NCBI RefSeq assembly: GCF_003334385.1
Contig: NZ_QOWN01000020.1
DNA: 64,000 bases
DNA from: Escherichia coli
Lineage (GTDB): Bacteria > Pseudomonadota > Gammaproteobacteria > Enterobacterales > Enterobacteriaceae
Reading direction: 5' to 3' (one strand)
In this document: one piece after another, positions 11,123 through 16,639 of the stretch
Numbering within the stretch: position 1 is the first letter of the stretch
Layout of the letters: every line of letters starts with the position of its first letter
Notes under the pieces: generated by a model
Databases searched by the model: none
What the model saw: the letters and a program-made list of their open reading frames with translations, nothing else
What the model was told of the DNA's origin: nothing
Made by a program: the position numbers and the translations under genes

Positions 11123-11199
<77 letters not shown>

Positions 11200-11256
11200 T
11201 TTAGTCCCGGCGCTTGAGCTGCGGTGGTAGTAATACCGCGTAACAAGATTTGTAGT

Positions 11257-11333
11257 GGTGGCTATAGCTCAGTTGGTAGAGCCCTGGATTGTGATTCCAG
11301 TTGTCGTGGGTTCGAATCCCATTAGCCACCCCA
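11257..11333 (+). tRNA. hisR: tRNA-His (anticodon GTG) with encoded G-1
   Basis: GGTGGCTATAGCTCAGTTGGTAGAGC...TTGTGAT...GGTTCGAATCC...CCACCCCA; extra 5' G characteristic of tRNA-His. Confidence 0.97.
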
Positions 11334-11353
11334 TTATTAGAAGTTGTGACAAT

Positions 11354-11440
11354 GCGAAGGTGGCGGAATTGGTAGACGCGCTAGCTTCAGGTGTTAGTGT
11401 CCTTACGGACGTGGGGGTTCAAGTCCCCCCCCTCGCACCA
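11354..11440 (+). tRNA. leuT: tRNA-Leu (anticodon CAG), class II with long variable arm
   Basis: 87-nt GCGAAGGTGGCGGAATTGGTAGACGCG...CTTCAGGT...GGTTCAAGTCC...CGCACCA. Confidence 0.97.
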
Positions 11441-11482
11441 CGACTTTAAAGAATTGAACTAAAAATTCAAAAAGCAGTATTT

Positions 11483-11559
11483 CGGCGAGTAGCGCAGCTT
11501 GGTAGCGCAACTGGTTTGGGACCAGTGGGTCGGAGGTTCGAATCCTCTCTCGCCGACCA
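11483..11559 (+). tRNA. proM: tRNA-Pro (anticodon TGG)
   Basis: 77-nt CGGCGAGTAGCGCAGCTTGGTAGCGC...GGTTTGGGACC...GGTTCGAATCC...CGCCGACCA. Confidence 0.97.
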
Positions 11560-14764: not shown

Positions 14765-15188
14765 GCAAAATGCTCCGGTTTCATGTCATCAAAATGATGA
14801 CGTAATTAAGCATTGATAATTGAGATCCCTCTCCCTGACAGGATGATTACATAAATAATAGTGACAAAAATAAATTATTTATTTATCCAGAAAATGAATT
14901 GGAAAATCAGGAGAGCGTTTTCAATCCTACCTCTGGCGCAGTTGATATGTAAGGCAGGTTTATTATATCGCGTTGATTATTGATGCTGTTTTTAGTTTTA
15001 ACGGCAATTAATATATGTGTTATTAATTGAATGAATTTTATCATTCATAATAAGTATGTGTAGGATCAAGCTCAGGTTAAATATTCACTCAGGAAGTTAT
15101 TACTCAGGAAGCAAAGAGGATTACAGAATTATCTCATAACAAGTGTTAAGGGATGTTATTTCCCGATTCTCTGTGGCATAATAAACGA

Positions 15189-15395
15189 GTAGATGCTCAT
15201 TCCATCTCTTATGTTCGCCTTAGTGCCTCATAAACTCCGGAATGACGCAGAGCCGTTTACGGTGCTTATCGTCCACTGACAGATGTCGCTTATGCCTCAT
15301 CAGACACCATGGACACAACGTTGAGTGAAGCACCCACTTGTTGTCATACAGACCTGTTTTAACGCCTGCTCCGTAATAAGAGCAGGCGTTTTTTT
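15189..15395 (+). ncRNA. glmZ: small RNA GlmZ (activator of glmS translation)
   Basis: Sequence recognised as GlmZ (GTAGATGCTCATTCCATCTCTTATG...); ends in hairpin GCCTGCTC-CGTAATAAG-AGCAGGCG plus T7; convergent with hemY. Confidence 0.85.
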
Positions 15396-15442
15396 ATGTG
15401 TCAGGAAGGCCCCGGAGGTGCTTGCCCCCGGGTGAGAAGGAA

Positions 15443-16639
15443 CTACTGTGGTGGGTTGTTCTGCAACGTTAACATCAAACCGTCGTGACGCATCGCTGCA
15501 GCTTCTTCCGGCTTGTGCAGTCTGTCCAGCGCGTCGGCAAGCCATGCGTAATCGTAGGCGTCCGGACGTTGTTTCAGCGCTGCGCGGAAGGCGAGCGATG
15601 CTTCCTGCCATTCTCCGTGCTTCATCAGTGACTGGCCCAGTGTGCTCCACAACAGCGGGCGATCGCCGACGTTTTTGATCTGCTGGCGCAGCACTTTTTC
15701 CAGCTGTTCCGGATTGTTGGTTTTCAGTCGAGGAATCGGCAGCAGTAGGCGATCGTCGTACTGGCGTTTCAGGCCATCGATGATAATTTGCTGGGCAGTA
15801 TCATGATCGTCACATTCAATAAGATGTTCCGCCATTGCCACCTGCAACGCTACCTGATGACGCGTTTTCCGGCTTTGGTTTTTCCACCAGTTACGCAAAC
15901 CTTCACTACCGTTATCGGCACGCGCCTGATCCATCAGGCCAATCCATGCCTGTTGTTCCAGCATTGCACGATGTTCTTCATCACCAACATGGGCTTTCGC
16001 CATTGATGGGATGATATCCAGCAGAGAACTCCATGCACCTGTGCGGATATACGCCTGTTCCGCCAGACGTAATACTTCCGGATGGCGTGGCGTAACTTCC
16101 AGCAGCTTATCCACGCCGTGGCGTGCAGCATGGTTTTCATTACGGGCCAGTTGCAGACGTACACGGGTGATTTCTACCGGAATGGTGTCATTGCCGGCCA
16201 GCTCCGCTGCGCGTTCCAGATGTTGGTTGGCGCGCGCTTCATCACCACGTTGTTGCGCGGCTTCGGCAGCCAGTAGATAGTTCACCACCGGTTGTTCAGC
16301 GTGATCGGCATTTTTCGCCATCAGCTTTTCAACTTGCTGATAATCGCCTTCCGCCAGTTTCAGCAGCGCCTGTTCGGTCTGCTTACGTGCACGGCGACGC
16401 TTACGCCCGACAAACCACCCACGGGTGTGCGCGCCAGTGCGGAAGATCCGCCGCAGTAGCCACTCAATGGCAAACAGCACTACCATCGCCAGAATCAATA
16501 TGATCGCCAGGCCCGTGACGCTGGTTTCGATATTGTAGTTGTCGGTCTGGATCAGCACATAACCCTGATGACCGGCAATCATCGGGCCAACCACTATCCC
16601 CGCAATCAGCAACACAAAGAGTAATAACACTTTTAGCAT
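15443..16639 (-). CDS. hemY: HemY protein (TPR-containing inner membrane protein of hemCDXY operon)
   Basis: 398-aa ORF, N-terminal TM helices, synteny downstream of hemX. Confidence 0.93.
   Translation of the reverse strand: MLKVLLLFVLLIAGIVVGPMIAGHQGYVLIQTDNYNIETSVTGLAIILILAMVVLFAIEWLLRRIFRTGAHTRGWFVGRKRRRARKQTEQALLKLAEGDYQQVEKLMAKNADHAEQPVVNYLLAAEAAQQRGDEARANQHLERAAELAGNDTIPVEITRVRLQLARNENHAARHGVDKLLEVTPRHPEVLRLAEQAYIRTGAWSSLLDIIPSMAKAHVGDEEHRAMLEQQAWIGLMDQARADNGSEGLRNWWKNQSRKTRHQVALQVAMAEHLIECDDHDTAQQIIIDGLKRQYDDRLLLPIPRLKTNNPEQLEKVLRQQIKNVGDRPLLWSTLGQSLMKHGEWQEASLAFRAALKQRPDAYDYAWLADALDRLHKPEEAAAMRHDGLMLTLQNNPPQ

Follow-up and report, generated by a model that had tools for sequence, protein, structure and literature searches.

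glmZ and hemCDXY of Escherichia coli converge on a short 3'-end region whose two stem-loops are probably each used on both strands

Results

Convergence of glmZ and hemY

The gene for the small RNA GlmZ and hemY, the last gene of the hemCDXY operon, face each other in a window of 64,000 nucleotides of E. coli DNA, the window being the whole stretch that was analyzed (Table 1). A query of about 1 kb centered on this region found matches in all 5426 complete E. coli genomes. Positions 15150-15500 of the window align without gaps with the sequence of MG1655, in which glmZ is identical, and the offset deduced from this alignment (MG1655 coordinate = window coordinate + 3971243) was used to transfer the transcript ends mapped in K-12. 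All 3'-end data considered here originate from K-12 rather than from the strain of the window, whose glmZ-hemY spacer carries two substitutions in comparison to K-12.

Assignment of glmZ relied on a match to Rfam family RF00083 (GlmZ_SraJ), which covers the full model (positions 1-214 of 214) with a score of 218.4 bits for a gathering score of 60 (E = 5e-57). The TAG stop codon of hemY is the complement of positions 15443-15445, leaving a spacer of 47 nt (15396-15442). The convergent orientation and the 47-nt spacer reported in a preliminary description of this DNA, made from the sequence alone, were therefore correct to the base. The RefSeq annotation of MG1655 assigns 172 nt to glmZ (3986432-3986603, corresponding to window 15189-15360), stopping just before the terminator stem; the RNA is 207 nt long according to the Rfam match and to the mapped 3' ends, so that its last 35 nt are left out of the annotation. 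Elsewhere in the window, four tRNA genes are clustered on the + strand (11123-11556), and the matching MG1655 positions carry hisR and proM in Term-seq tables.

Table 1. Features of the convergent region and of its transcript ends (window coordinates).
Feature	Position	Strand	Basis
glmZ, 207-nt primary sRNA	15189..15395	+	RF00083; MG1655 identity; mapped full-length 3' end
Processed GlmZ 3' ends, nt 151-154, RNase E/RapZ product	15339..15342	+	Term-seq, TRS
Distal hemY 3' end, 7 nt past the GlmZ-terminator complement	15352..15355	-	TRS; Rho-sensitive boundary at 15353
GlmZ intrinsic terminator	15361..15395	+	Terminator scan, fold; complement is a 12-bp hairpin in minus-strand RNA
Proximal hemY 3' end, 7 nt past H1	15402..15404	-	Term-seq, TRS
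H1, hemY-proximal hairpin	15411..15432	-	Fold; Escherichia comparison
Rare GlmZ read-through 3' end, 7-8 nt past H1 read forwards	15438..15439	+	TRS
hemY coding sequence, last gene of hemCDXY	15443..16639	-	398-aa ORF
Two published start sites inside the hemY 3' end (MG1655 3986702, 3986736)	15459..15493	-	TRS table

GlmZ ends at a canonical intrinsic terminator

The GlmZ terminator consists of an 11-bp stem (15361-15371/15380-15390) with seven GC pairs, an 8-nt loop, and a run of seven T residues ending at 15395, as anticipated in the preliminary description. The fold of the + strand has a free energy of -19.8 kcal/mol (z = -4.25). Full-length GlmZ ends have been mapped to MG1655 3986636-41 (window 15393-15398) with a TRS signal, R, of 0.94-1.0 (Bar 2023 TRS, PMC10687069). 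The GC-rich stem, the U tract, and a published end located inside this tract identify a canonical intrinsic terminator on the + strand. GlmZ is made as a 207-nt RNA, which is then cut to about 151 nt (review). The processed form was detected by Term-seq as ends classified as 'internal' at 3986582, 3986583, and 3986585, corresponding to nucleotides 151-154 (Adams 2021, PMC7815308), and by TRS at 3986582-83 (Bar 2023, PMC10687069).

A weaker + strand end, with an R value of about 0.6, is located at 3986681-82 and results from read-through (Bar 2023 TRS, PMC10687069). A Rho region was also reported on this strand at 3986668, with a score of 2.8 and 30 downstream for 1924 upstream reads in the absence of bicyclomycin (Adams 2021, PMC7815308). 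Thus, the GlmZ terminator is efficient on the + strand and the remaining read-through is partly Rho-sensitive. The same data place GlmZ far above the hemY mRNA in abundance (1924 versus 175 reads per 800 nt; Adams 2021, PMC7815308).

The spacer contains a second hairpin, which precedes the proximal hemY 3' end

A second inverted repeat, designated H1, is present in the spacer and was absent from the preliminary description. The minus-strand RNA reads CCCGGGGG-CAAGCA-CCUCCGGG followed by the tail GCCUUCC, and forms an 8-bp GC-rich stem. The fold is unremarkable on its own (z = -1.36), with 18 of 200 shuffled sequences folding equally well. One pair of the stem is G.U in the window and A-U in K-12. 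In E. albertii, the hairpin is CCCGGAGAU-AAGU-AUCUCCGGG, with a compensatory G-C to A-U change and one additional pair. H1 is thus retained within Escherichia by substitutions that maintain the structure. Its tail, GCCUUCCU in the window, is richer in U in E. albertii (CUUUUCU) and in other lineages of E. coli (CUUUCU). With its poor U tract, H1 looks like an intrinsic terminator that is weak or has decayed. The possibility that H1 is a repeated element such as REP was rejected for E. coli, in which it occurs at a median of one place per genome.

Term-seq identified a minus-strand end at 3986647, classified as 'primary hemY', in LB at OD 0.4, in LB at OD 2.0, and in M63, and this end is the dominant hemY peak in the three conditions (Adams 2021, PMC7815308). 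The CCA end of the proM tRNA served to verify the register of the sequence column in that study. The end corresponds to window 15404, exactly 7 nt past H1 and 8 nt short of GlmZ. The proximal end was also detected by TRS, at 3986645, with an R value of 0.42 (Bar 2023, PMC10687069).

The complement of the GlmZ terminator precedes a distal hemY 3' end

In minus-strand RNA, the complement of the GlmZ terminator forms a 12-bp hairpin (-21.6 kcal/mol, z = -5.56), which folds better than its + strand counterpart. It is followed by the tail UUAAAACAG (also given as UUAAAACAGG), which is devoid of a U tract. Using a threshold of at least five U residues within 8 nt after the stem, the minus strand does not qualify as a canonical intrinsic terminator, and a terminator scan of the locus scored the GlmZ hairpin on the + strand only, with no minus-strand site. 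The TRS tables similarly report a maximum U run of 2 at the minus-strand end past this hairpin (Bar 2023, PMC10687069). Among 104 Enterobacterales loci, 95 have zero or one U in the 8 nt of minus-strand tail, and the maximum is three. The U tract is missing because the GlmZ bases located 5' of the stem form a U-rich single-stranded end, the opposite strand being A-rich. As far as hemY is concerned, the GlmZ-terminator complement therefore falls outside the canonical class of terminators. A canonical bidirectional terminator, in which the stem would be flanked by an A tract and a U tract, was also rejected, the + strand upstream of the stem being UUUUAA rather than an A run.

Minus-strand ends have nonetheless been mapped 7 nt past this hairpin, at 3986595, 3986597, and 3986598, with R values of 1.0, 0.98, and 0.85, respectively, in three RNAtag-seq datasets (Bar 2023, PMC10687069). 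They are annotated as 'Primary hemY' with a 90-nt 3'UTR (Bar 2023, PMC10687069). A single stem-loop, the GlmZ terminator, thus marks the ends of both convergent transcripts. The preliminary description had proposed that the complement of the GlmZ terminator serves as the hemY terminator and that one structure may terminate both RNAs. The strong published end past the hairpin agrees with the first proposal, but the structure lacks a U tract and is not canonical; the second holds for the distal hemY isoform, whereas the other isoform ends at its own hairpin, H1. The counter-case considered in the same description, namely a distinct hemY end with no overlap with glmZ, is true of the proximal isoform and false of the distal one.

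The two laboratories disagree on the stronger minus-strand end, which is proximal in Adams 2021 and distal in Bar 2023. Curation of the former list retained only the strongest peak per 100 bp (PMC7815308), which is why the distal hemY end and the full-length GlmZ end are both missing from it. The supplements of the SMRT-Cappable-seq and TERMITe studies contain no entry for hemY or glmZ.

Rho and other possible origins of the minus-strand ends

Direct RNA sequencing of cells treated with bicyclomycin revealed a Rho region on the minus strand at 3986596, with a score of 10.3 and p = 4e-44 (Adams 2021, PMC7815308). Reads upstream and downstream of this position were 175 and 52 in the absence of the drug, and 154 and 473 in its presence (Adams 2021, PMC7815308). 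Read-through at 3986596 thus increased upon inhibition of Rho, as scored over windows of 800 nt. The boundary coincides with the distal end obtained by TRS, a different technique used in a different laboratory. Since downstream reads exceeded upstream reads in treated cells (473 versus 154), part of the bicyclomycin effect may reflect new glmZ-aslA transcription rather than read-through from hemY. Inspection of the spacer for a rut-type loading site disclosed only a modest C/G bias: the ratio on the minus strand is 1.6-1.9 over positions 15445-15371, much of this stretch being folded in H1, and falls below 1 further on. We favor Rho-dependent release of the polymerase followed by fixation of the RNA end by the hairpin, because the minus strand has no U tract and the Rho boundary falls on the same base as the distal end.

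The main rival to Rho-dependent release is a factor-independent bidirectional terminator (Ju et al., 2019), in which pausing at the hairpin from either side, together with head-on and trailing collisions involving polymerases from the strong glmZ promoter, would generate the ends without any contribution of Rho. The geometry fits, the two genes being convergent and their 3' ends, which are uniform on both strands, overlapping across the hairpin; glmZ is moreover transcribed constitutively from a sigma-70 promoter. The Rho sensitivity does not fit, as the minus-strand end coincides with the Rho region of score 10.3. Furthermore, the + strand has a textbook intrinsic terminator, whereas this class has been described as Rho-independent and unlike intrinsic terminators. 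We regard this explanation as unlikely.

Somewhat less probable again is an origin of the minus-strand ends mainly in short RNAs of about 56-140 nt that are initiated inside the 3' end of hemY and are partly antisense to GlmZ. Two start sites, 3986702 and 3986736, are designated as 'Nearby TSS', with reference to Thomason 2015, in TRS Supplementary Data 4 (PMC10687069); both lie within 150 nt of the terminus and could give rise to short RNAs ending at H1 or at the GlmZ-terminator complement. The density of read starts is about 10-fold higher in the hemY 3'UTR than in the coding sequence (3.1 versus 0.31), but RNAtag-seq by design inflates read starts at termini, and hemY is not an outlier in any library of the Bar 2023 analysis. 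In addition, a promoter scan detected no match to the sigma-70 consensus upstream of the two start sites. Production of the ends from short RNAs and from the operon mRNA is not mutually exclusive.

It is improbable that the two transcription units are fully insulated, such that hemY would end at H1 alone, some 8 nt short of the 3' end of GlmZ, with no significant transcription antisense to glmZ. This proposal agrees with the Adams 2021 list, in which 3986647 is the sole primary hemY end in the three conditions, and with the comparison of genera, since most of those with a spacer of at least 34 nt have a separate hairpin past hemY, which is often followed by a canonical U tract. Against it, the list keeps one peak per 100 bp, the TRS end at 3986595-98 is stronger in three datasets, leaving only R = 0.42 at H1, and direct RNA sequencing places the Rho boundary at 3986596. 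An exclusive use of H1 by hemY, with no overlap, as read from the Adams list alone, was accordingly dropped once the distal TRS end and the 100-bp filter were taken into account.

Finally, the distal end is most unlikely to be a library artefact of the strongly structured GlmZ RNA, which exceeds the hemY mRNA at least 10-fold in abundance, even if all TRS evidence comes from one type of protocol, since a mirror image of GlmZ would map to the GlmZ ends (3986432, 3986583, and 3986637) rather than to 3986597, and direct RNA sequencing, which involves no cDNA or ligation step, puts the best boundary at 3986596.

The long hemY isoform overlaps the 3' end of GlmZ

The preliminary description had also raised the possibility that convergent read-through produces antisense overlap with the part of GlmZ that is processed by RNase E/RapZ. 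An overlap of about 42 nt does exist, comprising nucleotides ~166-207 of GlmZ, that is, the terminator and the last 7 single-stranded bases, but the RNase E processing ends (nucleotides 151-154) are not reached, the overlap stopping 12 nt short of them. The overlap is thus located inside the GlmZ fragment that is removed by processing, beyond the cleavage site.

The hairpin and the single-stranded 3' tail (AAAACAG) of the hemY 3'UTR are perfectly complementary to nucleotides 166-207 of GlmZ, which form the edge of the single-stranded stretch holding the glmS-pairing site, plus the Hfq-type terminator. We nevertheless consider it very improbable that the hemY 3'UTR, or a short internal RNA, acts as a cis-encoded antisense partner of GlmZ coupling the haem operon to amino-sugar synthesis. 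The hemY 3'UTR could titrate GlmZ to a small extent at most, because GlmZ is much more abundant than the hemY mRNA. If such pairing did occur, termination, stability, or Hfq loading of GlmZ could be altered, or the duplex could be cleaved by RNase III. In that case, selection rather than chance would account for the placement of convergent stop codons within 0-19 nt of the GlmZ T-run, which recurs in many lineages.

The glmZ-hemY spacer varies among Enterobacterales

A GlmZ pattern search retrieved 120 Enterobacterales loci, and both genes could be placed in 104 of them. In all 104, glmZ converges on hemY or on an inserted gene, with a spacer of 6 to about 1460 nt. For spacers of 21-120 nt, hemY is followed by a hairpin of its own in 62 of 65 loci; the scanner was crude (loops of 3-8 nt, no bulges), and the 31/31 split between canonical and U-poor hairpins is only approximate. 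Textbook terminators are often present after hemY in Enterobacter, Lelliottia, Pluralibacter, Serratia, Yersinia, and Pectobacterium. The hairpin is REP-like in Citrobacter and Salmonella (GCCCGGUGGCG..CUUACCGGGC).

Fourteen species, including Pseudescherichia vulneris and members of Mangrovibacter, Yokenella, Trabulsiella, Brenneria, and Acerihabitans, have a spacer of only 6-19 nt and no hairpin. In eight loci from Phytobacter, Enterobacter, Leclercia, Silvania, and related isolates (L019, L031, L034, L062, L068, L076, L112, and L119), an MFS-like gene of about 400 codons is inserted between hemY and glmZ. This gene is oriented towards glmZ, and 5-8 nt separate its stop codon from the A run found in the complement of the terminator. 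Comparison of the Enterobacter ORF with NCBIfam gave only a sub-threshold match, to TIGR00900 (MFS-type; 28.9 bits for a cut-off of 319.6).

About 700 of the 5426 complete E. coli genomes (about 13%) are devoid of the K-12-type spacer. In S103EC (L123), the one such genome inspected, an ORF for a hypothetical membrane-like protein of 196 residues (WP_001260226.1; L123 3045-3635, minus strand) is present between hemY and glmZ. Its UAA codon overlaps the last two T residues of the GlmZ T-run (approximately window 15394-15398), and hemY has a canonical terminator ahead of the ORF. A comparison of the 196-residue protein with NCBIfam returned nothing above the cut-offs (17.6 bits for 870). The same inserted gene is carried by Escherichia sp. 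E1V33 (L116), and Brenneria roseae (L032) has an ORF of 225 codons between hemY and glmZ. On these grounds, insertions appear to have occurred repeatedly between glmZ and hemY.

The convergent gene has no separate hairpin, and its stop codon lies within 0-19 nt of the GlmZ T-run, in the 14 species with short spacers, in the eight loci with the MFS-like gene, in E1V33, and in about 13% of E. coli genomes. In all these lineages, the GlmZ stem-loop is the sole 3' structure available to the convergent gene, and about a quarter of the 104 loci have no other hairpin past the stop codon of that gene. The idea of a shared terminator is more literally true in those lineages than in the window for which it had been put forward.

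Two other observations were made during this survey. In E. coli C9 (L122), an IS1 element flanked by a 9-bp target duplication is inserted at the position equivalent to window 15112-15120, about 70 nt upstream of the glmZ start and just upstream of the promoter region; the insertion is present in at least two E. coli genomes. The pattern search also matched a 279-nt, low-coverage contig of a Bacillales assembly, that of Alkalicoccobacillus porphyridii (L104), most likely owing to contamination of the assembly by enterobacterial DNA.

Discussion

We estimate at about 0.7 the probability that glmZ and hemCDXY converge on a short 3'-end region with two stem-loops, each used on both strands. According to this model, GlmZ ends at its own canonical terminator, and roughly 1-2% of the transcripts read through and stop 7-8 nt past H1. 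In the opposite direction, part of the hemY transcripts end 7 nt past H1. The others cross the 47-nt spacer, copy the GlmZ terminator as antisense RNA, and reach their 3' end 7 nt past the 12-bp hairpin, generating a long isoform with a 90-nt 3'UTR, the last ~42 nt of which are complementary to nucleotides 166-207 of GlmZ. The hairpins, the bicyclomycin sensitivity, and the location of each RNA end are observed facts. We infer that release of the polymerases that pass H1 is most likely Rho-dependent, and possibly aided by head-on traffic from the constitutive glmZ promoter. The 12-bp minus-strand hairpin would then block 3' exonucleases, thereby fixing the mature hemY end.

Beyond annotation and strain construction, the finding matters little. 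In K-12, hemCDXY transcripts have two alternative 3' ends, and the intensively studied sRNA GlmZ is overlapped by about 42 nt of the longer form. The standard glmZ deletion removes the distal hemY end, which is relevant to the use of glmZ deletions and terminator mutants. Strand-specific reads over glmZ can pass for antisense RNA when they simply correspond to the hemY 3'UTR. More generally, the terminator of an sRNA can be the sole 3' structure for a convergent protein-coding gene, and the hairpin is not canonical in the other direction because the U-rich single-stranded region of the sRNA prevents it.

The data for the two hemY ends already sit in published supplementary tables. Judging from titles and abstracts, none of the eight publications in which both glmZ and hemY are mentioned appears to address the shared end region, and in three of them hemY is given only as genomic context.

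The glmZ-hemY region is of a known kind, combining overlapping or bidirectional 3' ends of convergent genes with hairpin-protected Rho-dependent ends. Trimming of Rho-dependent 3' ends is known to stop at a protective stem-loop (Dar and Sorek 2018, summarized in Adams 2021, PMC7815308). Like these ends, the distal hemY end is located directly past a stable hairpin devoid of a U tract, and read-through increases upon inhibition of Rho. In contrast to them, the hairpin is not dedicated to hemY: being the reverse complement of another gene's terminator, it has a sequence that is constrained by GlmZ.

According to a preprint, REP elements located between convergent genes function as dual 3'UTR elements (bioRxiv 10.64898/2026.03.23.713779). 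The similarity lies in palindromes between convergent genes that act on both 3' ends, and extends to the REP-like hairpin of Citrobacter and Salmonella; the E. coli H1 differs in being single-copy and, by the copy-number test, not a member of the REP family. A terminator shared by chiQ and fur is mentioned in Bar et al. 2023 (PMC10687069). The partner of hemY is, by comparison, a regulatory sRNA with a 3' target-pairing site and an Hfq-type terminator rather than an mRNA 3'UTR.

A similar geometry is that of the bidirectional terminators revealed by SEnd-seq (Ju et al. 2019) and of the model locus ynaJ-uspE (Wang et al., bioRxiv 10.1101/2022.10.23.513370), in which the 3' ends are sharp on both strands and overlap across a hairpin, as they do for glmZ-hemY (+ strand end at ~3986638 and minus-strand end at ~3986597, across an 11-12-bp stem-loop). 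The glmZ-hemY pair departs from the Rho-independent, non-intrinsic character of the class as it is presented there, owing to its canonical + strand terminator and its minus-strand Rho score of 10.3. The region is thus distinguished from terminators of that type by the association of the canonical terminator of an sRNA in one direction, bicyclomycin sensitivity in the other, and H1 in tandem.
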